The notes under the pieces were generated by a model. That model was not told where the DNA came from, searched no databases, and saw only the letters and a program-made list of their open reading frames with translations. Shown here in pieces: positions 46,295 through 64,000 of a stretch of DNA of 64,000 nt (position 1 is the first letter of the stretch; every line of letters begins with the position of its first letter). Source of the stretch: an uncultured Actinomycetota bacterium. GTDB taxonomy: Bacteria > Actinomycetota > Actinomycetes > Prado026. The translations under genes were made by a program, and so were the position numbers. The stretch covers positions 1,077,347-1,141,346 of the forward strand of contig CAVYVA010000001.1 in NCBI GenBank assembly GCA_963771835.1. Reading direction: 5' to 3'.

Positions 46295-46353
46295 CTTGCT
46301 GCCGCCCGAGTCCCGCCGCAAACACCCGCGCGACCAGGGGCCACGATGGGCGC

Positions 46354-47016: not shown

Positions 47017-47025
47017 CCTGCGACG

Positions 47026-47244
47026 GTGCAGGCGACCGTGCGCACCTTCGACCCCGCGAGCCGGAGCGGTTCGGTCCTCCTGGACGACGGGGTGGAGCTG
47101 CCGTACGACCGCGGCGCGTTCGACGCCGGCGGGCTGCGGCTCGCGCGGGTCGGCCAGCGGGTCCGCATCCGGGTGGACGACGCCGCGGAGCGCGTGACGT
47201 TCCTGACCCTGGCCACACTTCCGGCCGAGCCCGACCCGTCCTGA
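47026..47244 (+). CDS. hypothetical small protein, 72 aa
   Basis: Intact ORF with GC3-rich codons (MQATVRTFDPASRSGSVLLDDGVELPYDRGAFDAGGLRLARVGQRVRIRVDD...). Followed by a strong hairpin. No family recognised. Confidence 0.55.
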   Translation: MQATVRTFDPASRSGSVLLDDGVELPYDRGAFDAGGLRLARVGQRVRIRVDDAAERVTFLTLATLPAEPDPS

Positions 47245-47256
47245 CGGGCGGACGCC

Positions 47257-47291
47257 GACGGCCCGGCACCCCTGTCGGGGACCGGGCCGTC
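47257..47291. terminator. bidirectional terminator-like hairpin between the convergent 72-aa ORF and hupB
   Basis: GACGGCCCGG-n15-CCGGGCCGTC is a perfect 10-bp stem, with an inner CCCC/GGGG pairing possible. It lies 13 nt after the plus-strand stop and 34 nt after the hupB stop. Confidence 0.55.
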
Positions 47292-47324
47292 GGACCGTTC
47301 GCCGGGCGACCGGCGCCGGAGGGC

Positions 47325-47948
47325 CTAGCGGGTGCGGCGGGCCGGGGCCTTCTTGGCCGGAGCCTTCTTCGCCGGGGCGCGCCTGACCGCAGCCTTCTTG
47401 GCGGGCGCGGCCTTGCGGACCGCAGTCTTGCGGGCCGGAGCCTTGCGGGCCGGGGCCTTGCGGGCCGGAGCCTTCTTGGCCGGAGCGGCCTTCTTGACCA
47501 CGGCGCGCTTGGCGGGTGCCGCCTTCCTGGCGGTCGCACGCTTGGCCGGAGCCCGCTTCACGGGAGCCTTCTTCGCCGCTGCCCGGCGGGCGGGTGCCGC
47601 CTTCTTCGCGGCAGCCCTGGCCGGAGCCGCGGCCTTCGCCGGAGCGGCCGGAGCCGCCTTGGTGAGCTTCTTGGCACCGCTGACGAACGCCTTCAGCTCC
47701 GCCCCGGGGCGGAACTTCGGAACCGAGGTCTTGCGGACCTTGACCGTGGCCCCGGTGCGCGGGTTGCGGGCAGTGCGCGCGCCACGCTCCACCTTCTCGA
47801 AGATGCCGAAGCCCGTGATCGCCACCTTCTCCCCGGCCACGACGGTGCGCGTGATGGTGTCCAGAACCGCGTCGATCGCGACCTGGGCCTCCCTCTTGCC
47901 GACGCCGAGCCGGTCGGCGAGAGCGTCGATGAGCTCGCTCTTGTTCAC
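47325..47948 (-). CDS. hupB: HU family nucleoid protein with long Lys/Ala/Pro-rich C-terminal tail (HupB/Hlp type)
   Basis: GTG at 47948. The HU fold reads MNKSELIDALADRLG...GFGIFEKVERGARTARNPRTGATV. A ~115-aa AKKAAPA-type repeat tail follows. Confidence 0.93.
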   Translation of the reverse strand: MNKSELIDALADRLGVGKREAQVAIDAVLDTITRTVVAGEKVAITGFGIFEKVERGARTARNPRTGATVKVRKTSVPKFRPGAELKAFVSGAKKLTKAAPAAPAKAAAPARAAAKKAAPARRAAAKKAPVKRAPAKRATARKAAPAKRAVVKKAAPAKKAPARKAPARKAPARKTAVRKAAPAKKAAVRRAPAKKAPAKKAPARRTR

Positions 47949-48105
47949 TACTTCTCCTAGGGAATGTCCACGTCGAGCCGATGCCCGACCGGGGGAACGC
48001 TATGACCAAACACGCTCCGGAGACAAACACCGGCGCGGCGGAACGTCCTTGTGTCGCAAGGGGTTTGTGGGTCACGGGTCTGCCACGGACACCCCTGCGC
48101 GTCGG

Positions 48106-48711
48106 TCAGTCGACAGCCAGGACCGGTGATGTCGTGGGCAGCCAGCCCGGACGGCCCTCCTCGAAGGCGGTCACCTCGTCGACGTGCCGGAGCGTGAGTC
48201 CGATGTCGTCCAGCCCTTCCATCAGGCGCCACCGGGTGTAGTCGTCGATGTCGAACGGCTCCGTGCCGCCGGCCCAGCGCACCTCGCGCGAGCGCAGGTC
48301 GACGGTCAGCTCGGTGCCGGGATCGGCTTCGACGGCCGACCAGATGCGCTCGATGACGTCCTGCCCCAGCTCGACGGTGAGCAGCCCGCCCTTGGCGCTG
48401 TTCCCCTTGAAGATGTCGCCGAACCTGGGCGACAGGACCACGCGGAAGCCGTAGTCCAGCAGCGCCCACACCGCGTGCTCGCGGGACGAGCCGGTGCCGA
48501 AGTCGGCGCCGGCGACCAGGACGGTCGCGCCTGCCCTGGCCGGGTCGTTGAGCACGAAGCCGGGATCCTGGCGCCAGGCCGCGAACAGGCCGTCCTCGAA
48601 CCCGGTGCGGGTGACCCGCTTGAGGTAGACCGCGGGGATGATCTGGTCGGTGTCGACGTTGGCCCGCCGCAGCGGCAGCGCCCGACCGGTGTGCACGACG
48701 ATGGGTTCCAT
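48106..48711 (-). CDS. leuD: 3-isopropylmalate dehydratase small subunit
   Basis: ATG at 48711 overlaps the leuC stop (ATGA). [16 protein letters not shown]...[17 protein letters not shown]. Confidence 0.95.
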
Positions 48712-50141
48712 CAGCTCGCCCTCCGCTGCGACCCGGCGACCGGCGGCAGGTCCGTGGGGGCGGCCAGCCGGCCGACCACCGCCGTGGCGGCCGCGACCGG
48801 CGGTGAGACCAGGTGGGTGCGACCACCCTTGCCCTGCCGACCCTCGAAGTTGCGGTTGGACGTGGAGGCGCTGCGCTCGCCAGGCGCGAGCTGGTCGGGG
48901 TTCATGCCCAGGCACATCGAGCAGCCGGCCCCGCGCCACTGCGCGCCCGCGGCGATGAAGACCTGGTCCAGGCCCTCGGCCTCGGCCGCGAGCCGGACGC
49001 GTACCGACCCCGGCACCACGAGCATGCGCACCCCGTCGGCCACCCGGCGCCCGGACAGGACGGCGGCGGCGGCGCGCAGGTCCTCGATGCGGCCGTTGGT
49101 GCAGGAGCCGAGGAACACGGTGTCCACCGCGATCTCGCGCAGCGGCGTGCCCGCGGTGAGCCCCATGTACGCGAGCGCACCCTCGGCCGAGGTGCGCTCG
49201 GACTCGTCCTCGAACGACGCCGGGTCGGGCACCGACGCCGTCAGCGGCAGCCCCTGCCCGGGGTTGGTTCCCCAGGTGACGAACGGCGCCAGGTCGGCCG
49301 CTTCGATGACGACCTCGCGGTCGAACACCGCGTCGTCGTCGGTGGTGAGCGTGCGCCAGTACTCGACGGCCTCGTCCCACTCGGCCCCCTGCGGTGCGTG
49401 CGGACGGCCGCGCAGGAACTCGAACGTCGTCTCGTCCGGGGCGATCATGCCGGCCCGTGCCCCGGCCTCGATCGACATGTTGCACACGGTCATCCGCGCT
49501 TCCATCGACAGCGCCCGCACGGCCTCGCCGCGGTACTCGATCACGTGGCCCTGCCCGCCACCGGTCCCGATCCTGGCGATCACCGCGAGGATCAGGTCCT
49601 TGGCCGTGACACCGTCGGGAAGCCGGCCCTCGACCGTCACCGCCATGGTCCGGAACGGTCGCAGCGGCAGGGTCTGGGTGGCGAGCACGTGCTCGACCTC
49701 GCTGGTGCCGATGCCGAAGGCCAGCGCGCCGAACGCGCCGTGGGTGCTCGTGTGCGAGTCACCGCAGACCACCGTCATCCCCGGCTGGGTGAGACCGAGC
49801 TGCGGGCCCACCACGTGCACGATGCCCTGCTCGACGTCGCCGAGCGGGTGCAGCCGTACGCCGAACTCCGCGCAGTTGCGGCGCAGCGTCTCGATCTGCT
49901 CGCGGCTGACCGGGTCGGCGATGGGCTTGTCCAGGTCCGTGGTCGGGATGTTGTGGTCCTCGGTGGCCAGCGTGAGATCCGTGCGCCGGACCCGGCGGCC
50001 GGCTGCGCGCAGACCGTCGAACGCCTGCGGGCTGGTGACCTCGTGCAGGAGATGCAGGTCGATGTAGAGCAGGTCGGGTTCGCCGTCGGCCCGTCGCACG
50101 ACGTGCGCGTCCCACACCTTCTCCGCCAACGTGCGTCCCAT
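48711..50141 (-). CDS. leuC: 3-isopropylmalate dehydratase large subunit
   Basis: ATG at 50141. [15 protein letters not shown]...[14 protein letters not shown]...[23 protein letters not shown]...[10 protein letters not shown]. Confidence 0.95.
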
Positions 50142-50218
50142 CCGGGGCCTCCTGCTTGCCGGTGCCCGAGCGTGTCGGGATTGCAGGGAAGACTCTCCGC
50201 GCTGCACCGTTTCTTCGC

Positions 50219-50247
50219 ACTAGCGTCTCGTATGTCGAGACGCTAGT
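50219..50247. promoter_or_regulatory. perfect 12-bp inverted repeat ACTAGCGTCTCG-n5-CGAGACGCTAGT in the leuC / IclR-regulator divergent region; candidate operator
   Basis: Read directly from the sequence. It ends 8 nt before the regulator ATG (50256) and lies 78-106 nt upstream of the leuC ATG (50141). Confidence 0.55.
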
Positions 50248-50255
50248 ATCGCCAC

Positions 50256-50975
50256 ATGGACCACTCCACCAGCGGCGTCGGCGTCCTGGACAAGGCAGCG
50301 CTGGTGCTCGGGGCCCTCGAACCGGGCCCGCAGACCCTCGCCGGGCTGGTCCAGGCGACCGGGCTCGCGCGACCCACCGCGCACCGGCTGGCGGTCGCGC
50401 TCGAGTACCACCGCCTGGTCGGCCGCGACCTGCAGGGCCGGTTCGTCCTGGGCCCCCGCCTGGCCGAGCTCGCCGCCGCGGCCGGCGAGGACCGGCTGCT
50501 CGCGGCCGCGGGGCCGGTGCTGGCCTGGCTGCTCGAGACGACCGGCGAGAGCGCCCAGCTGTACCGGCGGCAGGGCGACGAGCGCATCTGCGTGGCCGCG
50601 GCCGAACGGCTGCACGGTCTGCGGGACAGCGTGCCGATCGGCAGCGTGCTCTCGATGCACGCCGGGTCCGCGGCCCAGATCCTGCTCGCCTGGGAGGAGC
50701 CGGACCGGCTGCACCGCGGCCTGATGGGCGCCCGCTTCACCGCGACCATGCTCGCGGGCGTACGGAGGCGGGGCTGGGCGCAGAGCGTCGGCGAGCGCGA
50801 GCCCGGCGTGGCCTCGGTGTCCGCGCCGGTGCGCGGCCCGTCCGGACGGGTGGTGGCGGCCGTGTCGGTGTCCGGCCCGCTGGAACGCCTGACCCGCTCC
50901 CCCGGACGCATGCACGCCCCCGCGGTGATCGCGGCCGGCCAGCGGCTGACCGAAGGACTGCAGAAGGCGACGTGA
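50256..50975 (+). CDS. IclR family transcriptional regulator divergent from leuCD (LtbR-like position)
   Basis: Intact 239 aa. HTH is LAGLVQATGLARPTAHRLAVALEYHRLV, followed by an IclR effector domain. The arrangement matches mycobacterial Rv2989 and corynebacterial ltbR. Confidence 0.85.
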   Translation: MDHSTSGVGVLDKAALVLGALEPGPQTLAGLVQATGLARPTAHRLAVALEYHRLVGRDLQGRFVLGPRLAELAAAAGEDRLLAAAGPVLAWLLETTGESAQLYRRQGDERICVAAAERLHGLRDSVPIGSVLSMHAGSAAQILLAWEEPDRLHRGLMGARFTATMLAGVRRRGWAQSVGEREPGVASVSAPVRGPSGRVVAAVSVSGPLERLTRSPGRMHAPAVIAAGQRLTEGLQKAT

Positions 50976-50993
50976 CCGCTCGACCCGCGCCGC

Positions 50994-51772
50994 TCAGCGC
51001 GTACAGGTGGCGGATCCGCACCGACAGGCAGGTGACGCAGCCCTCCAGCTTCTCGAACTCGCCGATGTCGACCGGCACCGGCGTGTAGCCGAGGTCGGCG
51101 AGCAGCTCGGCGGTTCGCGGGGCGGCGGACGACAGCAGCAGGCGGTCGCCGCCGAGCAGGACGACGTGCGAGCCGGGCTCCTCGGGCACGGGCACGAAGC
51201 GCGGGTAGACGGCCGCATCGTCGACGAGCGGCGGGTACCCGATCACCGACCCGTCCGGCAGCGCGGTCACCGCGCTCTTGAGGTGCAGGACCTTGGTGAC
51301 GGGGACCGCCACGACGCTGGCCCCCAACGGCTCGAGGATCGCGCGCAGCTGGCGGACGCCCTCGGCGTTGGTCCGGCCACCGCGTCCGACGTAGACGGTG
51401 TCGCCGACCTTGAGCACGTCCCCGCCGTCCAGAGTCCCCGGCGCGCGGACGGCGTTGACCGAGCAGCCCAGGGCGGTGACCACCTTCTCGACCTCGACCG
51501 TCTCGGGCTTGCGCTGGTCCGCGCCGGGCCGGCTCACCACCGCGACGTTGCGGAACATGACGACCGTGTCCTCGACGAACGCCGAGTCCGGGCAGTCGAC
51601 GGCCGGCGGCACCTCGATGGTCGTCCAGCCGTGTCTCACGCAGCGCCCGGACGTAGCCTTCCCACTGCTCGAGAGCCAAGCCGAAGTCCACCGGCCTGCG
51701 CTCGAGGTGCGTGAGCAGGCCCTCGGCGAGCCGAGGGCTGGGGCGGCGGACGAGCGCCTGCATGCTGGACAT
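50994..51772 (-). pseudogene. dimethylarginine dimethylaminohydrolase-like (amidinotransferase superfamily) enzyme; frame broken near the 5' end and probably at the stop
   Basis: MSSMQALVRRPSPRLAEGLLTHLERRPVDFGLALEQWEGYVRALRE (frame of 50243..51772) continues as GWTTIEVPPAVDCPDSAFVEDT...GGDVLKVGDTVYVGRGGRTN...EGCVTCLSVRIR (frame of 50737..51825). The frame switch is at ~51635. That frame then runs 240 nt into the convergent regulator gene. A TGA at 50996..50994 is reachable by removing one base. Confidence 0.75.
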
Positions 51773-51836
51773 GCCCCGGATCGTTCCACCTGCACAGTCC
51801 TGTTCGCACGGTCCCGTCGTCGCACGGTCCGGTCGG

Positions 51837-52462
51837 TCAGCCGGCCGGGTCCAGGTGCTCGCGGGCCCAGAGCGCGGCGCTGGTGCGGTCGCCGACCCCG
51901 ATCTGCCGGAACACCCGGCCCAGGTGCGCCTTGACGGTCCGCTCGCTGATGCCCAGCGCCCGGCCGATCTGCTTGTTCGCCAGGCCTTGCGCGACCAGCT
52001 CGAGAACCTCCCGCTCGCGCCCGCTCAGCCCGTCCGACACCGACGGGCCGGCCGTGGACGGAAGCAGGGCGCGGGCGACGCGGGGGTCGAGCGGGGCGTG
52101 GCCCTCGGCCGCGGCCCGGACCGAGGCCACCAGGTCGCGGGGGTCGCAGTCCTTGAGCAGGTAGCCGACGGCGCCGGCCGCGAGCGCCTCGGCCACCCGT
52201 GGCTGGTCCGAGAACGAGGTCAGCACGACCACGGCACAGTCCGGCTGCTGCCGCAGGACTCCCTGGTCGCCGCGACGCCGTCCATCACGGGCATGGACAG
52301 GTCCATCAGCACCACGTCGGGGTGCAGCTCGGCGGCAAGCTCGACGGCCCGCCGTCCGTCCGCCGCCTGTCCGACGACGCGCAGGTCGTCGGTGCCGTCC
52401 AGCAGCGCCGCAAGACCGGCGCGGACGAGCTGGTGGTCGTCGGCCAGGAGCACGTCGATCAC
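51837..52462 (-). pseudogene. NarL/LuxR family response regulator; one frameshift
   Basis: GTG at 52462 (GTGA overlap with the kinase stop). The REC domain is VIDVLLADDHQLVRAGL...VVLMDLSMPVMDGVAAT. It is followed by ...PDCAVVVLTSFSD and the HTH LSGREREVLELVAQGLANKQIGRALGISERTVKAH in ORF 51837..52232. The frame switch is at ~52265. Confidence 0.88.
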
Positions 52463-53753
52463 GGCCGCGTCACCACCAGCCGCCAGCGGGTGCCGGCGCC
52501 GGGCGCCGACGCGACCTGGAGCACGGCCCCGGCGCGGTCGGCGAGGTCTCGGACGACGCGCAGGCCGAGGTGGCCCTCGGGCGGGCTCGCCAGCGTCGCG
52601 GGTACGTCGAAGCCGACGCCGTCGTCCTGCACCGACAACGTGACCGTTTCCTCGGTCACCGCCAGGGAGACGTCGACGTGCTCGGCGGACGAGTGCCGCG
52701 CGGCGTTGCGCAGGCGACTCCTGGGCCACCCGGTACACCAGCCGCTCGCCGTCCTCGTCCAGCCAGGTGCGGCCGTCCGCGGGCAGGTCCAGCCGCACCG
52801 TCGATGTCCCGGGTCCGCATCGTGCCGGCCAGGTCGGTCAGCGCCGCGACCAGCCCGGACGAGCGCAGGCTCGGCGGGTAGATGTCGACCAGCAGCGACC
52901 GCAGCCCGCCGATGGACCCGCGCACGGCGGCCGCGGCCGTGCCCAGGGTCCCGGCCAGCTCGCCGCGGCCGTCGGCCTCGGCCCGGTCGGCCGCTCCCGT
53001 GACCGCGAACGATGCGGCGGCGAGCTCCTGGACGACGCCGTCGTGCAGGGTCGCGGCGATCCGGCGCCGCTCGTCGGCCGAGGCGTCGACCGCATGCTCG
53101 AGCAGCGCGACCCGCTGGGCCTGGGCGGTCTGCACCCGGTCCAGCAGCCGCCACAGGATCGGCAGCATCAGCGCGACGAGCAGCAGCAGGCTGGTCATGG
53201 TGATGCCGGCGAAGCCGCGCCACAGCTGGCTCGTGCGGGTGGTCACGGTGTCGTACGGCAGATAGGTCTCGAACAGCAGCGGCCGGCCGCTCGGAGTCCA
53301 GACCGGACGGTAGACCTCGAGCAGCTTCCCGCGGCCCTGCTCGTACTTGTTCTCCGGGCGGTCAGGTCGCTGACCTCGGCGTGCGTGGTCGGGTTCTCGA
53401 GCACCTGACGCTCCTCCTCGCCGAGCGCGAACGTGGCGCCGATGATGCGCGGCTCGTCGGAGTACAGGATCCGCCCGTCCGGGGTCCAGATCTTGACCCG
53501 GACGACGGCGTCGCCGAGCACGCGGGTGCGGACCGCGTCGTCCAGCCGGGCGAGGGCGGCGGGCGACCCGGTCAGCAGGGCGTCCTCGAGGGCGGGCTGC
53601 ACGGCCGAGGCGGCGAGCAGGTCGGTGGTCTGCGCAGCGTCGTTGACGGCCTCCCGCTCGGCGACCTTGCGGCTGGCGACAGCGCCGGCGACGGCGACGA
53701 CGACGAGCGACCGCGGCCATGGCCGCGACCACCTGCGCGAAGATCCGCCGCAT
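52459..53753 (-). pseudogene. sensor histidine kinase (HisKA_3/DesK-NarX type) with extracytoplasmic sensor domain; frame broken four times
   Basis: ATG at 53753 opens MRRIFAQVVAAMAAVA (TM1). The sensor domain is RKVAEREAVNDAAQ...VRVKIWTPDGRILYSDEPRIIGATF... and then ...RPENKYEQGRGKLLEVYRPVWTPSG. TM2 follows, then the H-box ERRRIAATLHDGVVQEL and the ATPase LSVQDDGVGFDV...GHLGLRVV. Frame switches are at ~53705, ~53362, ~52800 and ~52718. Confidence 0.85.
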
Positions 53754-53889
53754 CCGGACCGGGCGGTCGGCCGGCCCGGGACGCCGGCCGACGCCGGACA
53801 CGGTGACCCAGGGCGGGACGCCGGTCGTGCGGCGGCACCGCGGGGACCGGTGCGGTCCGCGCGGTGCCGCCGCCCGGAGGTGTCCGCTG

Positions 53890-54298
53890 TCACTGGTGCG
53901 CGGCGCCGTCGTCCCCGCCGTGCTTGCCGCTCCCGGCGCTCGGCCGCTCTGGCCGCCGTTGTCGTCGCCCGGCTCGGCGTGCGTGGTCGCGCCGCCGTTG
54001 TCGTCGCCGGCTCGGCGTGCGTGGTCGCGCCGCCGTTGTCGTCGCCGGGCTCGGCGTGCGTGGTCGCGCCGCCGTTGTCGTCGCCGGGCTCGGCGTGCTT
54101 GGTCGCGCCGCCGTTGTCGTCGCCGGGCTCGACGTGCTTGGTCTGCCCGCCGTTGTCGTCGGCGGCCTGGGCCGCAGCCACCTGGGCGGGGACCCGCACC
54201 GGGACGCTCTGGGCGAAGGATGCGTTGCCGGCCAGGCCGGTGATCGCCGGGACGGCGGCGGCGACGGCCGCCGCGGTGAAGATGAGCAGTCGCTTCAT
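53890..54298 (-). pseudogene. secreted tandem-repeat protein, about six copies of GDDNGG(A/Q)T(K/T)H(A/V)EP; frame broken in the repeats
   Basis: ATG at 54298 opens the signal peptide MKRLLIFTAAAVAAAVPAITGLAGNASFA. The repeats read ...DDNGGQTKHVEP GDDNGGATKHAEP GDDNGGATTHAEP GDDNGGATTHAEP, then (other frame) GDDNGGATTHAEP GDDNGGQ.... The plausible end ...SAGSGKHGGDDGAAHQ*, with stop 53892..53890, is in the third frame. No family recognised. Confidence 0.7.
53952..54162. repeat. 39-bp tandem repeat array (about 5.4 units) encoding the 13-aa repeats; unit 2 is 38 bp
   Basis: Units are 53952-53990, 53991-54028 (38 nt, reading GCCGG where its siblings have GCCGGG/GCCCGG), 54029-54067, 54068-54106 and 54107-54145, plus a partial unit. 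Confidence 0.85.
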
Positions 54299-54453
54299 GG
54301 GGTGCTCCTCGATCGTTGGGTTCGACTGCTCTCCATTGGCGGGGACGGCTGGTCTCGTCCGCCATCGGACCTTGGCACTAGTACCACGTACCCGGACCGG
54401 GCGGAGTTCACCGCGTCGGCCCGGGACGGCCCGACGCACCCGGTGACGGGGCG

Positions 54454-55014
54454 CTACGCGCAGCGGGCCGAGGCGCCCAGACGCCGGTAGCGCACCTGGT
54501 GCCCGTCCGGCCAGGTCAGGACGAACGACGCGACCGCCCGGACCCGGGTGCCAGGCCGACAAATCTGCACGCGCGAGCGCTGGGCGTCGGCCCGGTTGCG
54601 CTGCGGCGCGGAGGGCTTGGCCGGGGTGACGTACACCCAGTGACCCCGGCCGCGGTACTCGGCGACCTTGAGCACCGCGCGCACCCAGTACGCCCGGCCG
54701 GCGGGACAGGCCAGGCTCGGGCCGGTCGCGTAGACCGTTGCGCCGACGATGTGCACGCGGGTGGCCCCGAGCGTCGCGCACCCGGACGGCAGCGGCCCGC
54801 GCGGAACCTTGTCCCAGCGGACAGCCGGCAGCTTCGGTCCTACCGGCGTCGCGGGCCCGGAGGCGGTGGGACTCGGCGAGGCGGTCGTGGGGGCCGGCAG
54901 GGCCGACGAGGCGGTGGGTGAAGGCGACCGCCTGGGCGGGTCGCCGGTGCATCCGGTCAGCCCCAGGAGCGATCCAAGAACGACCACAGCACACAGCGCA
55001 CGGACACGTCGCAC
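54454..55014 (-). CDS. hypothetical lipoprotein
   Basis: GTG at 55014. Signal peptide plus lipobox VRRVRALCAVVVLGSLLGLTGC, then a Pro/Ser/Thr-rich linker and a ~110-aa Cys-containing domain. No family recognised. The longer ORF to 55116 is less likely. Confidence 0.65.
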   Translation of the reverse strand: MRRVRALCAVVVLGSLLGLTGCTGDPPRRSPSPTASSALPAPTTASPSPTASGPATPVGPKLPAVRWDKVPRGPLPSGCATLGATRVHIVGATVYATGPSLACPAGRAYWVRAVLKVAEYRGRGHWVYVTPAKPSAPQRNRADAQRSRVQICRPGTRVRAVASFVLTWPDGHQVRYRRLGASARCA

Positions 55015-55132
55015 GACTCTCCCCCGTCGACCCGGCCGACCACTGGCCGGCCACTGACCGGCCAGGTGGCCGGCGACGGGATCGTGCCTGCTGCGTGCGA
55101 CCTTGTCCAACGACACGCCGACGGCACAGGAC

Positions 55133-55165
55133 GAAGGCCCGGATCGACAGACGACCCGGGCCTTC
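55133..55165 (-). terminator. hairpin immediately 3' (on the minus strand) of the orphan tRNA-Glu 3' fragment
   Basis: GAAGGCCCGG-n13-CCGGGCCTTC, a perfect 10-bp stem. Probably the native terminator of the tRNA-Gln/tRNA-Glu unit, displaced by the islet. Confidence 0.45.
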
Positions 55166-55171
55166 GCTGCC

Positions 55172-55199
55172 GTGGCCCCGACGGGATTCGAACCCGCGC
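55172..55199 (-). repeat. orphan copy of the 3' 28 nt of tRNA-Glu (direct repeat, putative distal att site)
   Basis: 27/28 identical to 57779-57806 (GTgGCCCCGACGGGATTCGAACCCGCGC versus GTaGCC...). No D-arm or anticodon arm can be folded upstream of it. Confidence 0.8.
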
Positions 55200-55413
55200 C
55201 CTGCTACCTGGCTAGCCGGCGACCCTGACTCGCAGCCTTGCCGACTATGCAGGACCAGCCGGCCACCTGGTGTTGTGGCTCGTGAGTGGTTTGCATCCCG
55301 TCAGCAGCTGTTGTCCTGGAGTAGTTCACAACAACGACGCAATCCCCGACGGCGGGGGGCACGGGTAGCCCCCTTGGTGTTCGCCGCCGTGGAGAGCGGG
55401 TCGTGACAGTCTG

Positions 55414-56502
55414 TCAGGACACGGCCCAAGCAGCGGGATAGGCGTCTTCTGAGCCTCCTGCGTAGCCAGTTATCACCCAGATGTGTGCGTCGCCTGGGGT
55501 CAGGATGTCGGTCACCTGGGGATCGATGGCGACCGTTTGAGTGTCGGAGTTGCCGGACAGGATTCCATTGTTGGTGCCCGTGTCTTTCACGACGGGTACC
55601 GGAATGCTGGTTTCCTGACCCGACTTGAGGTCGACGCCGACCAGAGTCTCGGTCATGTAGCCCTGGGTGATCATCCAGACGTCAGCGGCGCCGAGTGCCA
55701 TGGGGAAGGCCCAGCTTGGAGTCGCTGTCCCCTTGTACGCAGTCTGGGATTGTAGGGAAAGGTCGCTCGCCGCAAACCGGCTGATCGTCCCGGGGCTGAC
55801 GATATACACGGTGTCCCCGCCGTGCAGTACGACTGAGTCTTTCGGCACGAGCCAAAGATTTCCGGCCGCCGACTTCGGGCTGCTGTCGGTCGGGAGAACA
55901 TTCAGCGCCACGTGGCCATCCCAGGCTGTCACTCGTGTTCCCAGCGTCGGGACATCGCCGTCGGGCAGAGCGACGGTCGTCCAGACCTGGTCCTGCGGGG
56001 TGAACGAGAAGAGTTGCTGACTGTCGACCACCGCTACCCACAGCGACCCATCGGGGGCAGAGGCGAGGTCGACGGCTCGGCCTCCGCGACCGTCGCCCGC
56101 GTCCTTCCAGGGCCCCTCGTGTGAATCGATCGAGCCGGTCGACGGGTCATAGGAGACCAGGACCGAACCCCAGACGGCCCAGACGACCCCGCCGTGTGTG
56201 GTGACAGCCCCCCGAAGCCAGTCAGAGCCGTCGTCAGAAAGGACTACCGTCTTGCTTTGACCAGTCGCCGGATCGAGGTCATCGAGTACGACTGAGTTGT
56301 TCACGTCTGTACGCGTCAACGCCCAAATGTGACCGGTTGCTGGGTCGAGTGTGGTCGCCCGGAACCCCGCCGGAAGGGTGGTGGAGATCGGCGTCATGGA
56401 TCGCACCTGCGCCGCGGGCGCTTGATCACGTGTCGTGGCGGTCCCACAGCCTGCAAGCAGCAGCGCAACACCCAGCGGAGCCGCCACACGCACGGCCCTC
56501 AT
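55414..56502 (-). CDS. hypothetical lipoprotein, beta-propeller-like repeat architecture
   Basis: ATG at 56502 overlaps the upstream stop (ATGA). Lipobox LLLAGC. About seven recurring blade-like segments are centred on hydrophobic-W motifs (GHIWALT, GVVWAVWG, GSLWVAVV, QVWTTVAL, GNLWLVP, DVWMITQG, AHIWVITG). No family assigned. Confidence 0.7.
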   Translation of the reverse strand: MRAVRVAAPLGVALLLAGCGTATTRDQAPAAQVRSMTPISTTLPAGFRATTLDPATGHIWALTRTDVNNSVVLDDLDPATGQSKTVVLSDDGSDWLRGAVTTHGGVVWAVWGSVLVSYDPSTGSIDSHEGPWKDAGDGRGGRAVDLASAPDGSLWVAVVDSQQLFSFTPQDQVWTTVALPDGDVPTLGTRVTAWDGHVALNVLPTDSSPKSAAGNLWLVPKDSVVLHGGDTVYIVSPGTISRFAASDLSLQSQTAYKGTATPSWAFPMALGAADVWMITQGYMTETLVGVDLKSGQETSIPVPVVKDTGTNNGILSGNSDTQTVAIDPQVTDILTPGDAHIWVITGYAGGSEDAYPAAWAVS

Positions 56503-57323
56503 CGCACAGCCCCGTAGGTCTGGAAGTGCCTGTGGTCGCCCGTTACGTAGGGCGAGTAAGCGAAGTCAGGACGGTTCTGAACAATCGCAGTCGTAACTCC
56601 GGCGCTCCAGTCCGCCCAGCCGCTGGCGCCGTGCAGGCGCATCGTCTGGTTTGTATTCGGCGTCGCTGAACCGAAGTTCGACATCGGCATACCCATGTAC
56701 CCGCTGGGACCGCTCCATGTCTCGTTGGCTGCGGCCATGAACCCGGAGATCGGGTAGACCACACACGACGAGTCCGTGAGCGTGCTGTTGTTGTAGTACG
56801 TCAGCCAACAGTTGTCAGAGGACGAGTATTGGATCCGATACGTCACAAGGCCGCTCAGACCCAATGATCCCATGTGCTTGATGAAGTAGAAGCCGTTGGG
56901 CTCGAGCTGCTCAAAGTAGAGCAGGTACTGGTTGTACGAGTAAATGCAGTTGATATCGAAGGTGCAGTTGCTGATTGTGTGGCCTCGGGTCACGAGGCCA
57001 CTAGCCCATCCGATCTGCAGCCAGGCGCTGTTCGCCGTGTTGAAGTTCGCATCCACGTACCCAATCGAATGCGCGTCGTTGTTGATCGGGATCGGCGCCA
57101 ACTGCGGCGGTGTCTGGATCTGGCCGTCAACACCGTTGTAGCCGTAGTACGGGTTCGAGTCGCCAGGGCAGACCACGGCTCCGCTGGTACTGGCAGTCAG
57201 TTGAGCCGAGTAGCCGTACCCGCCACACGGGCCAGACGCGCTCGCCACACCATTTCCGAAGCCGACCAAGGCAACGCCGACACAGCACGCGATGGCAACG
57301 CTAGTCAGGCGCCGAAATGCCAT
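56499..57323 (-). CDS. hypothetical secreted Cys-rich protein, 274 aa
   Basis: ATG at 57323. Signal peptide MAFRRLTSVAIACCVGVALVGFGNGVASA. The mature part is rich in Tyr/Asn/Ser/Gly with 8 Cys. About 52% GC. No family assigned. Confidence 0.7.
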   Translation of the reverse strand: MAFRRLTSVAIACCVGVALVGFGNGVASASGPCGGYGYSAQLTASTSGAVVCPGDSNPYYGYNGVDGQIQTPPQLAPIPINNDAHSIGYVDANFNTANSAWLQIGWASGLVTRGHTISNCTFDINCIYSYNQYLLYFEQLEPNGFYFIKHMGSLGLSGLVTYRIQYSSSDNCWLTYYNNSTLTDSSCVVYPISGFMAAANETWSGPSGYMGMPMSNFGSATPNTNQTMRLHGASGWADWSAGVTTAIVQNRPDFAYSPYVTGDHRHFQTYGAVR

Positions 57324-57742
57324 GGGGTCCCCCTTCTGGGCGCAACGTACTCAGGGCGAAGAGCGACAGGCAATCCTGAAGTTCATTCCGGTGTCGCGCG
57401 CCAGCGACTTCGTACACACAGTCCCCCACACGTTGAGCCGGAGTGAGTGAACTGCTAGGCCACGGGGTGACTGGGGGGTGGCCAGAAATGTTCCGATGAG
57501 CTGGTCGGCCGTGAGGGTCGGGGCGCCCAGCTCGACGAAGCGCAACGAGCGAGAGTACGGCTGAGTCGGCAAGGACGATCGCGCCGACGGCGGGGGGCCG
57601 ATGGGTTACACAGCGAGTCCCTGGTTGTGCAGCCCTATCACTGTGGGGTATCGGCAGGCATCGCCTGCTACCAAGCCGTATCGATCTTTACCACGTCGTC
57701 CGTGGTCAAAGTGCGGTCAAGATCGTTTGTGGCCGGGCCAAT

Positions 57743-57777
57743 GGCAAAGGCCCAGGTCGCTGACCTGGGCCTTTGCC
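57743..57777 (-). terminator. perfect 15-bp hairpin directly 3' of tRNA-Glu
   Basis: GGCAAAGGCCCAGGT-cgctg-ACCTGGGCCTTTGCC starts 3 nt after the tRNA 3' end on the minus strand. No U-tract follows. Confidence 0.5.
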
Positions 57778-57779
57778 AG

Positions 57780-57852
57780 TAGCCCCGACGGGATTCGAAC
57801 CCGCGCTACCGCCTTGAGAGGGCGGCGTGCTAGGCCGCTACACAACGGGGCC
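57780..57852 (-). tRNA. tRNA-Glu (anticodon CUC)
   Basis: Hand-folded cloverleaf. Acceptor GGCCCCG/CGGGGCT (G1-U72 wobble), D-stem GTGT/GCAC, anticodon stem CCGCC/GGCGG with loop CT-CTC-AA, and T-arm GCGGG-TTCGAAT-CCCGT. No encoded CCA. Confidence 0.85.
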
Positions 57853-57897
57853 GGACAGGCTCGGTACGCACCGGAGTCCCGGGACCCACCGAACGCG

Positions 57898-57969
57898 CTG
57901 GGGTACCAGGACTCGAACCTAGACTAACGGAGCCAGAATCCGTCGGGCTGCCAATTACCCCATACCCCA
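57898..57969 (-). tRNA. tRNA-Gln (anticodon CUG)
   Basis: Hand-folded cloverleaf. Acceptor TGGGGTA/TACCCCA (U1-A72), D-stem GGGT/GCCC, anticodon stem ACGGA/TCCGT with loop TT-CTG-GC, T-arm CTAGG-TTCGAGT-CCTGG, and discriminator G. Confidence 0.85.
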
Positions 57970-58055
57970 TGGGATGCACGCGGGTGGCCGAAGCTCCCGA
58001 GCACTGAAGAGCAAGAGGCGAGGCTACCCGATCGGCGCTGGCCGGGCCAAAGCGG

Positions 58056-59567
58056 TCAGCCGGCGAGCCGCGACAGCAGCGCCCGGACCCGCGCGACGGA
58101 CTGATCCGCCCCCAGCAGCTCCATCGACTCGAACAGCGGCGGCGACACGCGCCGGCCGGTGACTGCCACCCGGACCGGCGTGAAGGCGTTCTTCGGCTTC
58201 AGCCCGAGGTGGTCCACGAGCGCGGCCCGCAGCGCCGCCTCGATCCCGTCGTGGGTCCAGGCGGGGACCCGGGCAAGGTCCTCGAGTGCGGCCAGCGCGG
58301 CGGCCAGCACCCGCTCCGCGTCCGCCCCCAGCCCGGCGACCGCCTCGTCCTCGACCGCGAACGCCGCCGGGTCGACCACCAGGAAGCCGAGCATCCCGGG
58401 GGCCTCCTCCAGCACGGTCATCCGCTGCTGCACCAACGGTGCCGCGGCGAGCAGCAACGCACGCTGCTGCTCGCTGGGAGCGGCCGGTGCCTGCGGCAGC
58501 GCGCCGGACCGCTGCAGGAACGGGACGACCCGCGCGGCCAGGTCGGCCGGGTCCAGCGCGCGCAGGTGCACGGCGTTGATCGCCTCGGCCTTCTTCAGGT
58601 CGAACCGCGCGGGGTTCGCGCTGACCCGGGCCAGGTCGAACGCCGCAGCCATCTGCGCCATCGTGAAGATCTCCCGGTCCTCGCCCATGGACCAGCCCAG
58701 CAGAGCCAGGTAGTTGAGCAGCCCTTCGGGCAGGAACCCGCGCTCGCGGTAGAGCCCCAGCGAGGACGCCGGGTCGCGCTTGCTCAGCTTCTTGTTCCCC
58801 TCGCCCATGACGTAGGGGAGGTGGCCGAACCGCGGCGTCCCGTCGGCGACACCGATCGCCTGCAGCGCCTCGTACATCGCCAGCTGGCGCGGGGTGGAGG
58901 AGAGCAGGTCCTCGCCGCGCAGCACGTGCGTGATGCGCATCAGCGCGTCGTCGACGGGGTTGACCAGCGTGTAGAGCGGCTCGCCGTTGCCGCGCACGAT
59001 CACGAAGTCGGGGACGTGCTCGTGCGCGAACCCGATCGGCCCGCGCACCAGGTCGTCCCAGTGCCAGTCGCGGTCCGGCATCCGGACCCGCAGCACCGGG
59101 AGCCGGCCGTCGGCGCGCAGCTTCGCCTTCTCGTCGTCGGTCAGGTGACGGTCGGCGTTGTCGTACCCCAGCTTCGGGTCCTGCCCGGCGGCAGTGCGCC
59201 GCGCGGCGACCTCCTCCGGGGTGGAGAACGACTCGTACGCGAAGCCGGCCTCGACCAGCCGCGCGGCGACGTCGGCGTAGACGTCGAGCCGCTCGGACTG
59301 CCGGTACGGCGCGTACGGGCCGCCGACCTCCGGCCCTTCGTCCCAGTCCAGCCCCAGCCACCGCAGCGCCTCGAGCAGCTGGCCGTAGCTGTCCTCGCTG
59401 TCCCGGGCGGAGTCCGTGTCCTCGATCCGGAAGACGAAGGTGCCGCCGGTGCGTCGGGCGTACGCCCAGTTGAACAGGGCGGTCCGGACCATGCCGACGT
59501 GCGGGTTGCCGGTCGGCGACGGGCAGAACCGCACCCGCACCGTGCCGGGCGACGCCTCGACGCTCAT
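58056..59567 (-). CDS. gltX: glutamate--tRNA ligase
   Basis: Intact 503 aa. [21 protein letters not shown] (HIGH region) and KLSKR (KMSKS). Followed by tRNA-Gln and tRNA-Glu on the same strand. Confidence 0.95.
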
Positions 59568-60352
59568 GCCACCACCGGGTTCCGCAGGGTGCCGATGCCC
59601 TCGATGCGGACCTCGACCGTGTCGCCGTCGACGATCGGACCGACCCCGGCGGGCGTGCCGGTCAGCAGGATGTCACCGGGGAGCAGGGTCATGACCGCGC
59701 TGGCGTACGAGACGAGCTCGGCGACCGAGTGCAGCATGTCGCGGGTGCGACCCTGCTGGCGCAGCCCGCCGTTCACCCGGCACTCGACGGCGAGGTCGCC
59801 GGGGTCCAGCTCGGTCTCGATCCACGGTCCGAGCGGGCAGAAGGTGTCGAACCCCTTGGCCCTGGCCCACTGTCCGTCCGATCGCTGCAGGTCGCGCGCG
59901 GTGACGTCGTTCCCGCAGGTGTAGCCGAGCACCGCCTCCATCGCCCGCTCGATCGGCAGCTCCCGGACGAGCCGGCCGATGACGACGGCGAGCTCGGCCT
60001 CGTGGTGCACCTCGGCGCTGAGCGCGGGCAGCCGGACGTTGTCGTCCGGCCCGACCACCGACGTGGAGGGCTTGAGGAACACCACCGGGTCGGCCGGCGC
60101 CTCGCCGCCCATCTCCCGCGCGTGGTCCGCGTAGTTCTTGCCGATGCCCAGCACCTTGCTCGGCACCACCGGGGCGAGCAGACGGACCTCGCCGAGCGGG
60201 AACCGGGCGGCGGACAGCTCGAACGGACCGAACGGGTGCCCGTCGATCGCGGTGACGTGGGCGGCGTCGGCACTGCCGGGCGCGGCCGCGGGGTCGCCCT
60301 CGACGACCCCGAAGGCGATCTGGTCGGCGACCGAGAAACGGGCGATGCGCAC
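59564..60352 (-). CDS. fumarylacetoacetate hydrolase family protein
   Basis: GTG at 60352. [28 protein letters not shown] and TPAGVGP. The stop overlaps the gltX ATG (ATGA). Confidence 0.88.
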
Positions 60353-60362
60353 GGGCGTCAGG

Positions 60363-61973
60363 CTACCCGGCGGCGTCCGGCGCCCCGGCGTCCCGTCCGG
60401 CGCGCAGCAGCCCGTACGCGACGGCGTCCTCCAGCGCCATCCAGGAGGCGGCGATGACGTTCTCGTGGACGCCGACGGTGTCCCACTCGCTCTCCCCGTC
60501 GGAGGTCTCGACCAGCACCCGGGTGATCGCGCTGGTGCCCTGCGACCCCTCCAGGATCCGGACCTTGTAGTCGACCAGCTCGAGCCGGTCCAGCTCGGGG
60601 AAGCTGTTCTTGAGCGCCTGCCGCAAGGCCTGGTCCAGCGCGTTGACCGGACCGTTGCCCTCACCGGTCGCGACGATCCGCTGCCCGCCGGCGTGCACCT
60701 TCACCGTCGCCTCGCTGCGCACCACGCCGTCGGGTCCCTGCTCGACGATCGCCCGCCACGACTCCACCGTGAAGTGGCGCAGCCGGCGGCCGGTGACCTC
60801 GTCGCGCAGCAGCAGCTCGAACGACGCGTCGGCGGCCTCGAAGGTGAACCCGCGGGCCTCCATCTCCTTCACCCGGTCGACGACCCTGGACAGCGCCTCG
60901 CGGTCGTGCCCCAGCTCGTAGCCGAGCTCGCGGCCCTTGAGCTCGATGCTGGCCCGGCCGGCCATGTCGGACACCAGCATCCGGGTGTCGTTGCCGACCC
61001 GGGCCGGGTCGACGTGCTGGTACAGCATCGGGTCGACCTTGACCGCGCTCGCGTGCAGCCCCGCCTTGTGGGCGAAGGCCGACAGGCCGACGTACGGCTG
61101 GTGCTGGTTCGGCGACACGTTGGTGACCTCGGAGACCGCGTGCGCGATCCGGGTCAGCTCGCCGAGGGCGCCCTCCGGGACGACCGTGCGGCCCTTCTTG
61201 AGCTGCAGGTTCGCGACGACGCTGAACAGGTTCGCGTTGCCGGACCGCTCTCCGTAGCCGTTGGCCGTGCCCTGGACGTGCGTGACGCCGGCGTCCACCG
61301 CGGCGAGCGTGTTGGCCACGGCGCACGCGGTGTCGTCGTGGCAGTGGATGCCGAGCCGGGCCGAGGTGGCGGCGAGCACCTCCGCGACGACGTCGGCCAG
61401 CTCCGTCGGCAGCATGCCGCCGTTGGTGTCGCACAGCGCGACGACGTCGGCCCCGGCCGCGGCCGCGGTGCGGACGACCTCCAGCGCGTACGCGGGGTCG
61501 GAGCGGTACCCGTCGAAGAAGTGCTCCGCGTCGAGGAAGACCCGCTGCCCGGCGCCCACCAGGTGCTCGACCGTGTCGCGGATCATCGCGAGGTTCTCCT
61601 CGAGCGTGGTGCGCAGCGCCAGTTCCACGTGCCGGTCGTACGCCTTCGCGACCAGCGTCACCACGGACGCGCCGCTGTCTCGCAGCGCGCCCACCATCGG
61701 GTCGTCGGCCGCCTTCGCGCCGGGGCGGCGGGTGGATCCGAAAGCGGTCAGCGTCGCGTGCTTGAGGTCCAGCTCGGTGCGCGCCCTGGCGAAGAACTCG
61801 GTGTCCTTGGGGTTCGCCCCCGGCCAGCCGCCCTCGATGAAGCCGACCCCGAGCTCGTCCAGGTGCCGGGCGATCGTCAGCTTGTCGGCGACGGTCAGGT
61901 TGAGGCCCTCCTGCTGCGCACCGTCGCGCAGGGTGGTGTCGTAGACGTGGAAGGCGTCGTCCACGGCCGGCAT
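60363..61973 (-). CDS. cimA: citramalate synthase (LeuA/CimA family, LeuA_allo type)
   Basis: ATG at 61973. FHVYDTTLRDGAQQEGL, HCHDDTACAVANTLAAV, and a C-terminal LeuA-dimer regulatory domain. 536 aa. Confidence 0.85.
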   Translation of the reverse strand: MPAVDDAFHVYDTTLRDGAQQEGLNLTVADKLTIARHLDELGVGFIEGGWPGANPKDTEFFARARTELDLKHATLTAFGSTRRPGAKAADDPMVGALRDSGASVVTLVAKAYDRHVELALRTTLEENLAMIRDTVEHLVGAGQRVFLDAEHFFDGYRSDPAYALEVVRTAAAAGADVVALCDTNGGMLPTELADVVAEVLAATSARLGIHCHDDTACAVANTLAAVDAGVTHVQGTANGYGERSGNANLFSVVANLQLKKGRTVVPEGALGELTRIAHAVSEVTNVSPNQHQPYVGLSAFAHKAGLHASAVKVDPMLYQHVDPARVGNDTRMLVSDMAGRASIELKGRELGYELGHDREALSRVVDRVKEMEARGFTFEAADASFELLLRDEVTGRRLRHFTVESWRAIVEQGPDGVVRSEATVKVHAGGQRIVATGEGNGPVNALDQALRQALKNSFPELDRLELVDYKVRILEGSQGTSAITRVLVETSDGESEWDTVGVHENVIAASWMALEDAVAYGLLRAGRDAGAPDAAG

Positions 61974-62004
61974 GGCTGCTCCCTGGAATCCCTGGAAATG
62001 ACGA

Positions 62005-62030
62005 AGGCCCCCCACGGTCGTGGGAGGCCT
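62005..62030 (-). terminator. strand-specific hairpin between ilvE and cimA (terminator or attenuator)
   Basis: The minus-strand RNA AGGCCUCCCAC-gacc-GUGGGGGGCCU forms 11 bp with one G-U, followed by UCGUCAUUUCC. On the plus strand the same position is a C-A mismatch. It lies 32 nt upstream of the cimA ATG. Confidence 0.45.
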
Positions 62031-62157
62031 GCGCGTCGGGACGGGGTCCCGGCGCGCGCTAGGTAATGACGCTGCAGTACGCGGTGCGGTGCACGCTCCG
62101 ATTGTCGCACACGTCCAGCGGTCGGGACAGCCCGTCCGTCATCCGGACCGGCCGGGC

Positions 62158-63291
62158 TCAACCGGCCAGCGGGTGCACCCAGCCGTGCCGGTCGGGGGCC
62201 ACGCCGGTCTGGATGTCCAGCAGGGCCTGGCGCAGCCGAGCGGTGACCGGCCCGGTCCCGCCGTCCCCGACCGTCCACTCGTGCTCGGTGGAGCGGACCG
62301 CGCCGACCGGGGTGATCACCGCAGCGGTCCCGCAGGCGAAGACCTCGGTGAGCTCGCCGCTGGCGTTGCCCTCCCGCCACTCGTCCGTGGACACCCGACC
62401 GGCCCCGGAGACGTACCCCAGGTCGCCGGCGAGCGTGAGCAGCGAGTCGCGGGTCACTCCGGCCAGCAGGCTGCCGGTCAGCTCGGGGGTGACCAGCCGG
62501 GCGTCCGCGCCGGACCCGTAGACGAAGTAGAGGTTCATGCCCCCCATCTCCTCCACGTACCGGTGCTCGACGGCGTCCAGCCACACGACCTGGTCGCAGC
62601 CGCGCTCGGCGGCCTGGGCCTGGGCCACCAGCGAGGCCGCGTAGTTGCCGGCGCACTTGGCCTCGCCGGTCCCGCCCGGCGCGGCCCGGGTGTAGTCCTC
62701 GGACAGCCAGACGGTCACCGGCTTGACCCCGCGCGGGAAGTACGAACCCGCGGGCGACGCGATCAGCACGAACAGGTACGACGAGGACGGACGCACGCCG
62801 AGGCCGACCTCGGTGGAGAACATCAACGGGCGCAGGTACAGCGAGCGCTCGGCGCCGGACGGCACCCAGTCCGCGTCCTGCGCGACCAGCGCCTGGATCG
62901 AGGCCAGGAACAGCTCCTCGGGAAGCTCGGGCATCGCCAGGCGCCGGGCGGAGCGCTGGAAGCGCAGCGCGTTCTGCTCCGGACGGAAGGTCGCGATGGA
63001 CCCGTCGGGCTGGCGGTAGGCCTTGAGCCCTTCGAAGATCGCCTGCCCGTAGTGCAGCACCATGACAGCCGGGTCCAGCGAGACCGGGGCGTACGGCACC
63101 AGCTGGGCGTCGTGCCAGCCGCGCCCGGTCTCCCAGGCGATCGTGACCATGTGGTCGGTGAAGAACCGGCCGAACCCCGGGTCGGCCAGCCGGGCCTCGC
63201 GCTCGGCCGCGGCCAGCGGGGTGCTGGTGGGCTTGAGCGCGATCAGCGTGGTCGGGTCGGTACGCCGGTCGGTTGCGGTCTGCTCGGTCAT
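62158..63291 (-). CDS. ilvE: branched-chain amino acid aminotransferase
   Basis: Intact 377 aa. [35 protein letters not shown] and [11 protein letters not shown]. Confidence 0.95.
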
Positions 63292-63370
63292 CGGTGCTCG
63301 GTCCTCGCCTCGTCGTGTGACACCACGGTAGCCAGCCGGTCGGGCAGGCGTCAGCCCGCCCCGCGCTCGG

Positions 63371-64000
63371 TCAGCCCGACACGCGGGCTGCGAGCGCGTC
63401 GCCTACCTGGGCGGTGCTGCGGGCGCCGGTGCCGGCCCGCTCCGCCAGGTCGGCGGCGACCGCGGCGTTCACCTGCGCGGCGGCCCCCGGCAGGCCCACG
63501 TGGTCCAGCAGCATCGCGACCGAGAGCACCGTGGCCGTCGGGTCCGCCTTGCCCTGGCCGGCGATGTCCGGCGCCGAGCCGTGCACCGGCTCGAACATGC
63601 CCGGGTTGGTCCCGCTCACGTCCAGGTTGCCGCTGGCGGCCAGCCCGATGCCACCGGCGATGGCCGCGCCCAGGTCGGTGAGGATGTCCCCGAAGAGGTT
63701 GTCGGTGACCACGACGTCGAATCGCTGCGGCTGGGTGACGAAGAACATCGACGCGGCGTCGACGTGCAGGTACTCGGTCCGCACGTCCGGGAACTCGGTG
63801 CCGACCTCGGCGAACGTCCTGGTCCACAGGTCTCCGGCGTGCGTGAGCACGTTGTTCTTGTGCACCAGGGTCAGCAGGTGCCGGGGGCGGGCCGCGGCGC
63901 GGCCGAACGCGTCCCGGACCACGCGCTCCACGCCGTACCGGGTGTTCAGGCTCTCCTCGGTCGCGATCTCGTGCGGCGTGCCGCGGCGCAGGAAGCCGCC
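63371..64000 (-). CDS. leuB: 3-isopropylmalate dehydrogenase, C-terminal ~210 codons (gene runs off the right edge)
   Basis: [22 protein letters not shown] and [22 protein letters not shown]. The frame stays open to the window end. Confidence 0.92.

Follow-up and report, generated by a model that had tools for sequence, protein, structure and literature searches.

A short islet of foreign DNA behind a tRNA-Glu(CUC) gene is described here from an uncultured actinobacterium of the lineage Prado026 (assembly GCA_963771835.1, contig CAVYVA010000001.1), where it lies in a stretch of 64,000 nucleotides that is referred to as the window. The islet is an insertion of 2,607 bp bounded by two copies of a 28-nt repeat, and is best explained as a decayed integrative element that was inserted site-specifically into the tRNA gene's 3' end and kept both attachment (att) sites, in the manner of a cis-mobilizable element (CIME). 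We put the probability of this explanation at about 80%. A first-pass annotation, made from the nucleotide sequence alone, had already proposed an insertion at this place, and its claims are taken up where the evidence bears on them.

Insertion at the 3' end of tRNA-Glu(CUC)

On the minus strand the repeat reads GCGCGGGTTCGAATCCCGTCGGGGC[C/T]AC, and it occurs at two sites only in the window, even when up to three mismatches are allowed; none of 100 shuffles contained any match. One copy is the end of the intact tRNA-Glu gene, of which the last 28 nt (GCGCGGGTTCGAATCCCGTCGGGGCTAC) begin two bases ahead of the T-stem and end one base beyond the discriminator (C74), and the other copy is an orphan (Table 1). 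The sole mismatch between them is tRNA position 72, where the intact gene has T and the orphan has C, just as the first-pass annotation had it.

The composition of the islet is foreign to its surroundings. Its G+C content is 62.7%, as compared to 74.4% for the remaining window, which makes it the 2.6-kb stretch with the lowest value (z = -8.1). It is also the most deviant one in tetranucleotide composition, and the sliding analysis proposed earlier came out in favour of the islet. The earlier impression of an AT-richer segment was correct, whereas the 52-55% G+C then mentioned is true only of the local minimum (54% in the lowest 300 nt). The two cargo genes have a G+C content at third codon positions (GC3) of 0.78 (gene 1) and 0.74 (gene 2), against 0.88-0.97 in neighbouring genes.

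The empty site is found in a sister genome, on contig L086, which was detected through a homologue of the lipoprotein gene downstream of the islet. This contig is 96.2% identical to window positions 64000-57747 and 93.4% identical to positions 55199-45001, and the islet is absent from it. Both junctions in the window map onto L086 9836-9902: homology stops at ...GGGGCTAC on the side of the intact tRNA gene, with the break at 57779, and restarts exactly at GCGCGGG on the orphan side, at 55199. In L086 the tRNA-Glu gene is directly followed by ACGGCAGCGAAGGCCCGGGTC...CGTCCTGTGCCG...GTGTCGTTGGACAA, which is the sequence found after the orphan copy in the window, and then by the lipoprotein gene (10001-10561). 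The order gltX, tRNA-Gln, tRNA-Glu, hairpin and lipoprotein gene is uninterrupted both in L086 and in the more distant contig L087. The empty site, together with the exact junctions, therefore defines a precise insertion of 2,607 bp with a 28-bp target duplication. This bears out the proposal that an insertion into the tRNA 3' end had moved the native end 2.6 kb away, and the comparison with relatives, which could have gone against it, yielded an empty-site allele (L086 and L087) beside an islet whose composition is not host-like. The 80 gltX relatives from other actinobacteria gave no empty site, GltX identity being at most 79% and synteny being lost right after the tRNA, and L096, which carries the third close relative of GltX, breaks off within gltX.

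Since the duplication extends from the T-arm to just past the discriminator, it can be regarded as the probable trace of a tyrosine integrase of the T-loop class, supplied by a larger element or a helper. In such a course of events, the one tRNA-Glu(CUC) gene that lies downstream of gltX and tRNA-Gln would have received a foreign segment of 2,607 bp in its T-loop/3' end. Site-specific recombination would thereby have duplicated a 28-bp core that starts 2 nt ahead of the T-stem and ends with C74. The gltX-proximal junction (attL-like) now consists of a complete tRNA followed by an imported hairpin, and the distal junction (attR-like) of the 28-bp orphan, still joined to the native terminator hairpin and the downstream genes. 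The recombinase would since have been lost from the islet or would never have been there, leaving a relic that would be immobile alone, with both att sites kept.

Table 1 Features of the islet and of the adjoining host DNA (window positions)
Feature	Position	Strand	Evidence or remark
Native downstream lipoprotein gene, marking the host side of the right junction	54454..55014	-	87% identical to P0003 / L086 10001-10561
Native tRNA-Glu terminator hairpin, now parted from the tRNA	55131..55167	-	16-bp stem including G-U pairs, -38 kcal/mol, z = -7.2
Orphan 28-nt copy: tRNA-Glu T-arm, 3' acceptor strand and discriminator; attR-like core, C72	55172..55199	-	Sister homology restarts exactly here
Non-coding arm, P-like, 65% G+C; 15-nt motif GCCCCCCGCCGTCGG at 55346-55360	55200..55413	-	
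Cargo gene 2: 362-aa lipoprotein, lipobox LLAGC, predicted beta-propeller	55414..56502	-	AlphaFold, PDB fold matches
Cargo gene 1: 274-aa secreted protein, Sec-type signal peptide, conserved cysteines	56499..57323	-	GC3 periodicity
Non-coding arm, P'-like, 63.5% G+C; 15-nt motif GCCCCCCGCCGTCGG (tRNA strand) at 57584-57598	57324..57741	-	
Imported hairpin, terminator-like, following immediately on the 3' side of the intact tRNA	57742..57778	-	17-bp stem, -46 kcal/mol, z = -8.9
Repeat copy 1, attL-like core (last 28 nt of intact tRNA-Glu)	57779-57806	-	
tRNA-Glu(CUC), intact	57779..57852	-	ARAGORN; Rfam tRNA 60.4 bits; identical to tRNA-Glu of sister L086
tRNA-Gln(CUG)	57897-57969	-	ARAGORN; Rfam 57.8 bits; native upstream context
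gltX	58056-59567	-	Native upstream context; gltX/tRNA-Gln block 57897..59567; order common to 80 actinobacterial loci

The meaning of the single mismatch turned out to be the reverse of what had been thought. The G1-U72 wobble of the intact gene had been taken as a clue that its 3' end was donated by the element and that the orphan, with C72, carried the native end. However, G1·U72 is present in 103 of the 104 tRNA-Glu genes at the 80 actinobacterial gltX loci, which end in ...GGGG(C/G)TAC, and the uninterrupted tRNA-Glu gene of the sister also has T72; the C72 of the orphan is therefore the derived base. The lone exception, with G1-C72, is an Arthrobacter gene (L045). Judged from these genes, the wobble is a conserved, native feature of the acceptor stem throughout the lineage, and neither a defect nor the sign of a foreign end. 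The deviating base of the orphan may have arisen by later mutation, the copy being without function, or it may be an attP base (if the crossover took place 3' of position 72) or an assembly error; a change after integration or an assembly error is what we infer. It is through its joined flank, and not through base 72, that the orphan is native.

Each copy is followed on the tRNA strand by a hairpin. Both structures had been noticed before, and both exist, with stems that are longer than originally stated (17 bp instead of 15 for the imported hairpin, and 16 bp instead of 10 for the native one). The native hairpin is orthologous to L086 9864-9902. The imported hairpin differs from the native one of the sister, yet it has the same AAGGCCCRGGTC design. 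Within the window the exact AAGGCCCRGGTC sequence occurs in these two hairpins only, and the motif is also present after tRNA-Glu in L001, L002, L007, L009 and L016. Since the hairpin on the element side thus has the terminator design that is typical of tRNA-Glu in this clade, the attP arm may be traced to some actinobacterial tRNA-Glu locus. A hairpin near-identical to that of the islet, with the same loop and one compensatory G-C/C-G swap, was also encountered on plasmid NZ_CP108424.1 of Streptomyces sp. NBC_01294, where it comes after 78 nt that make up the 3' half of another tRNA and lie at the end of a Tn3-family transposase gene (L095 5986-6063).

The orphan gave rise to one ambiguous call by tRNA-finding software, a possibility that the first-pass annotation had foreseen. 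ARAGORN does report an 85-nt tRNA-Leu(CAG) at 55172-55256, but this is not a bona fide tRNA gene: its Rfam score of 20.9 bits lies under the threshold of 29 (the real tRNA-Glu scores 60.4), and its geometry is irregular, in that 4 nt separate the acceptor stem from the D stem, the D stem has 3 bp and a loop of 5 nt, the anticodon stem has 4 bp, and the anticodon lies at position 30. The 5' part of this pseudo-tRNA consists of the last 57 nt of the P-like arm (55200-55256), and it thus sits in inserted DNA that L086 lacks. The same 57 nt upstream of the orphan have no significant similarity to the 5' part of tRNA-Glu in local (p = 0.88) or global (p = 0.09) alignment. Part of the fold is a 7-bp acceptor stem in which two of the pairs are G-U. 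When the upstream sequence was shuffled, ARAGORN made a call in only 5 of 500 cases (1%), which means that the fold is somewhat better than expected by chance; it may nevertheless be a chance product.

Cargo genes and non-coding arms

Coding periodicity is confined to two ORFs (open reading frames) of the islet, both on the tRNA strand, and these form an intact two-gene operon in which the ATG of gene 2 and the stop of gene 1 overlap by 4 nt. They are intact, whereas several host genes nearby have frameshifts when compared with L086. Both proteins stay under the curated thresholds of Pfam, NCBIfam and PHROGs, Pfam giving weak sub-threshold matches to unrelated families, and the 80 gltX loci from other actinobacteria encode neither of them.

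The 274-aa secreted protein belongs to a very rare family. At E <= 0.001, a search of 5.8 billion protein clusters returned the protein itself and one full-length homologue with 50% identity (P0002), and a further, partial homologue is encoded on contig L091. There is no match to this protein in Pfam, NCBIfam, PHROGs or among PDB sequences, and the structure model, which was built on a two-sequence alignment, is poor (predicted local distance difference test, pLDDT, of 32). The 362-aa lipoprotein is better represented: its family counts 52 representatives in a set of 1.84 billion proteins, and all of the closest homologues have the lipobox cysteine. Its AlphaFold model (pLDDT 86.6) is all-beta, and the best PDB matches of the model are beta-propellers, namely streptogramin B lyase, YncE and SMP30. 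A beta-propeller is thus the predicted fold, which is an assignment of fold and not of function. On contigs L081 and L091 a gene of the 274-aa type is followed by one of the 362-aa type, as in the islet, and the pair is therefore a conserved module. On another metagenomic contig, an IS110-family transposase gene (L093 1882-3045) is located some 640 nt downstream of the gene for a 375-aa homologue of the propeller lipoprotein.

The operon is framed by two non-coding arms that have an exact direct repeat of 15 nt in common (GCCCCCCGCCGTCGG), one copy lying 146 nt upstream of the orphan core and the other 180 nt downstream of the core in the intact tRNA. No repeat of 15 nt arose in 300 shuffles, the longest being 11 nt. 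The motif would fit arm-type binding sites of an integrase, for which it is a candidate.

Competing explanations

In the islet, comparison of the ORFs with Pfam, NCBIfam and PHROGs revealed no integrase, excisionase or replication gene and no relic of one, and six-frame fragments of both arms did not match any recombinase or replication family in Pfam or PHROGs, nor did they contain a relic. The earlier statement that such genes are missing thus withstood all of these searches. None of 20 large ORFs tested from window positions 1-45000 encodes an integrase, all of them being housekeeping genes. Positions 45001-64000 are syntenic with L086, and the Pfam list of the called genes of that locus includes no integrase. 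A parent element was looked for by blastn of the islet against phages and plasmids, and by exact patterns (a 20-mer across the attL junction, and patterns from the 274-aa protein) in JGI metagenomes and IMG/VR. The larger elements with the same cargo and an integrase that the first-pass annotation suggested might be in the databases were not found: no larger relative turned up among phages, plasmids, IMG/VR or JGI metagenomes, and the junction 20-mer had no match in the collections of metagenomes and viruses. The homologous two-gene cassettes on L081 and L091 are not located beside tRNA fragments. Insertion of a transposon or insertion sequence (IS) was considered as well and rejected: a transposase is lacking, no terminal inverted repeat is present among the 25 longest inverted pairs between 53000 and 60000, and the duplication measures 28 bp and matches the tRNA sublocation that is used by integrases.

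The missing integrase, in the islet as well as around it, the missing parent element and the location of the cassette homologues weigh against a decayed integrative element, and so do some other observations. The attP arm appears, from its hairpin, to be derived from a tRNA-Glu locus and to supply a replacement terminator. The whole comparison is formed by one filled and one near-identical empty genome. Furthermore, frameshifts with respect to L086 are seen in several genes near the islet, for a histidine kinase, a response regulator and a repeat protein, and they suggest that the assembly is error-prone.

It is conceivable that the islet is not decayed at all, but a functional miniature integrative element, that is, a minimal att-flanked cassette with a terminator and a core by which the tRNA is restored. 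A tRNA-Glu-specific integrase encoded elsewhere, by an actinobacterial integrative and conjugative element (AICE), a prophage or another island, would excise and integrate this cassette in trans, or would move it by accretion. The islet is compact and free of pseudogene debris, its cargo has stayed intact beside frameshifted host genes, and the cores agree at 27 of 28 positions. A strong hairpin of its own behind the restored tRNA, the 15-nt motif common to both arms, and the lower G+C content of the cassettes relative to their flanks in L081 and L091, which are contigs from separate metagenome samples, would also agree with this. Another integrase-less islet between tRNA-Glu 3' repeats is known from L036 (12608-15495), where a 42-nt repeat brackets 2.8 kb with one gene for a 592-aa secreted protein. 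However, neither a second copy nor a circular form nor a helper integrase came to light, the 20-mer across the attL junction did not turn up in the metagenome and viral collections, and the cassette homologues, apart from lacking tRNA fragments, have no non-coding DNA in common with the islet. The core of L036 is of another type, starting in the anticodon loop, so that it does not belong to the same element family. We thus consider a functional miniature element rather unlikely. More improbable is the wider idea that integrase-less cassettes of 2-3 kb, each with a core that restores the tRNA, a terminator of its own and arm motifs, form a class which parasitises tRNA-Glu-specific phage or AICE integrases in trans, with the islet as an active member. 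If true, such cassettes would be the integrase equivalent of miniature inverted-repeat transposable elements (MITEs), and the islet would deliver a rare pair of a secreted protein and a propeller lipoprotein. Further members would then be L036 and perhaps the modules of 2-4 kb between duplicated tRNA-Glu genes in Saccharopolyspora and Dietzia. In these cases two complete tRNA-Glu copies bracket 2.3-3.6 kb with one or two genes and no integrase (L014 12647-15145; L061 11789-14379; L063 11676-15465). From the translations alone, we take the Saccharopolyspora module to encode an AraC-type regulator and a DJ-1/PfpI-like protein, and the module of two Dietzia species presumably encodes a TetR-type regulator and an MFS-type transporter.

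Tandem or split tRNA-Glu copies, most of them with a hairpin of their own, are common in relatives (Kineococcus, Geodermatophilus, Blastococcus, Saccharopolyspora and Dietzia), and a clade-typical hairpin follows both copies in the window. This would allow the orphan to be the relic of a tandem tRNA-Glu duplication, with a terminator for each of the two ancestral genes, in which foreign DNA has replaced the 5' two-thirds of the second copy. Yet L086 and L087 have a single tRNA-Glu gene, the flank of which is orthologous to that of the orphan, the identity with the tRNA begins exactly at the T-arm, and the adjoining 57 nt lack the significant similarity to tRNA-Glu that could be expected of a degraded 5' part. 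A duplication relic is largely refuted by the empty site, and we regard its chance as minimal. In contig L039 (13173-13314), two tandem repeats of 120 nt, each made up of a tRNA-Glu 3' half and a hairpin, were observed downstream of an intact tRNA-Glu gene.

An artefact, in which a low-GC fragment of another organism was joined to this genome at the conserved tRNA-Glu sequence during assembly, also has to be weighed, since the source looks like a metagenome assembly, with sister contigs that stem from ENA metagenome-analysis records and bear generic names of the type contig_N, and since tRNA-Glu is near-identical in many actinobacteria. The frameshifted genes point in the same direction. At window positions 51840-53874 and 26463-30031, a HisKA_3 histidine kinase gene and a response regulator gene are split over several reading frames, as compared to the intact orthologues in L086, and the SMC gene is split into two overlapping ORFs; these are either pseudogenes or products of an indel-prone assembly. 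A gene for a small secreted protein, flanked by those for the lipoprotein and the histidine kinase, contains six tandem 39-nt units (53932-54203) that encode a 13-aa repeat (DDNGGATTHAEPG-like). One of these units measures 38 nt and puts the gene out of frame with its 133-aa orthologue in L086. On the other hand, the host genome is resumed at exactly the tRNA position where it was left, a duplication of 28 bp included, and an artefact would thus need two matching chimeric joins. Moreover, an independent Logan assembly (run ERR11592903) contains the identical 274-aa gene and 484 nt upstream of it, up to the boundary of the 28-nt repeat, which is where one would expect a short-read assembly graph to break. 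A chimeric assembly is accordingly very improbable, and a decayed, site-specifically integrated element continues to be the explanation that we prefer.

Relation to known elements and significance

As far as integrated elements at tRNA 3' ends are concerned, the islet displays the 3' repeat with a complete tRNA, the empty site and the deviant composition, and it lacks the adjacent integrase gene. CIMEs are defined as cis-mobilizable elements without integration and transfer genes in which attL and attR are kept (PMC5704250). The islet agrees with this in its retained attL and attR and in the loss of integration and transfer genes, but sequence shared with an intact integrative and conjugative element (ICE) or integrative and mobilizable element (IME) was not found in plasmids, phages, IMG/VR or JGI metagenomes. 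Like the CIMEs related to ICESt1 and ICESt3 of Streptococcus thermophilus, it has att-like repeats at the 3' end of the target gene, contains cargo only, and is devoid of integrase, excisionase and transfer genes. It differs in having no known parent ICE/IME or helper and no accretion partner, in its actinobacterial host and in its size of 2.6 kb, and its mobilisation is putative.

AICEs at tRNA 3' ends, as well as remnants of them that lack modules, are well documented (PMC3218068). With elements such as pSAM2, SLP1 and pMEA300 the islet has a high-GC actinobacterial host in common, and remnants without modules are known in that family too, but it has no int, xis, rep or tra module left and no similarity to any plasmid in PLSDB by which descent from an AICE rather than from a prophage would be shown.

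The closest parallel for the core is provided by mycobacteriophage Ms6, which has a 26-bp attP/attB core (AGGGGTTCGAATCCCCTTAGCTCCAC) in the T-loop of tRNA-Ala and a class II integrase (PMC1762012). In Ms6 and in the islet the core occupies identical tRNA positions, namely the T-stem, the 3' acceptor strand, the discriminator and one base more, which is the class II arrangement, and both hosts are actinobacteria. The target is tRNA-Glu in the islet and not tRNA-Ala, and phage genes and integrase are missing.

The tRNA-Glu(CUC) gene itself is the target in two other cases. A prophage end in IMG/VR (L097), with terminase and portal genes, terminates in a 42-nt 3' part of tRNA-Glu, which starts in the anticodon loop and has a hairpin of its own behind it, and the small islet of L036, which like ours is without an integrase and which has a host-like G+C content of 69%, is bracketed by the same 42-nt repeat. 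A partial 3' copy of the tRNA followed by a hairpin of its own is common to all three. The cores of L097 and L036 comprise 42 nt from the anticodon loop (class I), as compared to 28 nt from the T-arm in the islet, and this difference in core start and length implies a different type of integrase.

The tRNA-Glu(CUC) gene beside gltX is a recurrent attachment site in Actinobacteria. The islet is of a kind that is already known and gives no pointer to a new mechanism, but it offers a clean and fully delimited T-loop insertion in a poorly sampled actinobacterial lineage, with the filled and the empty site both at hand. It also corrects a heuristic, since a G·U pair at positions 1-72 is no evidence of a foreign 3' end. 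The two cargo genes are inherited together, the 274-aa protein is almost without relatives in 15 billion sequences, and a functional study of this pair may be merited.

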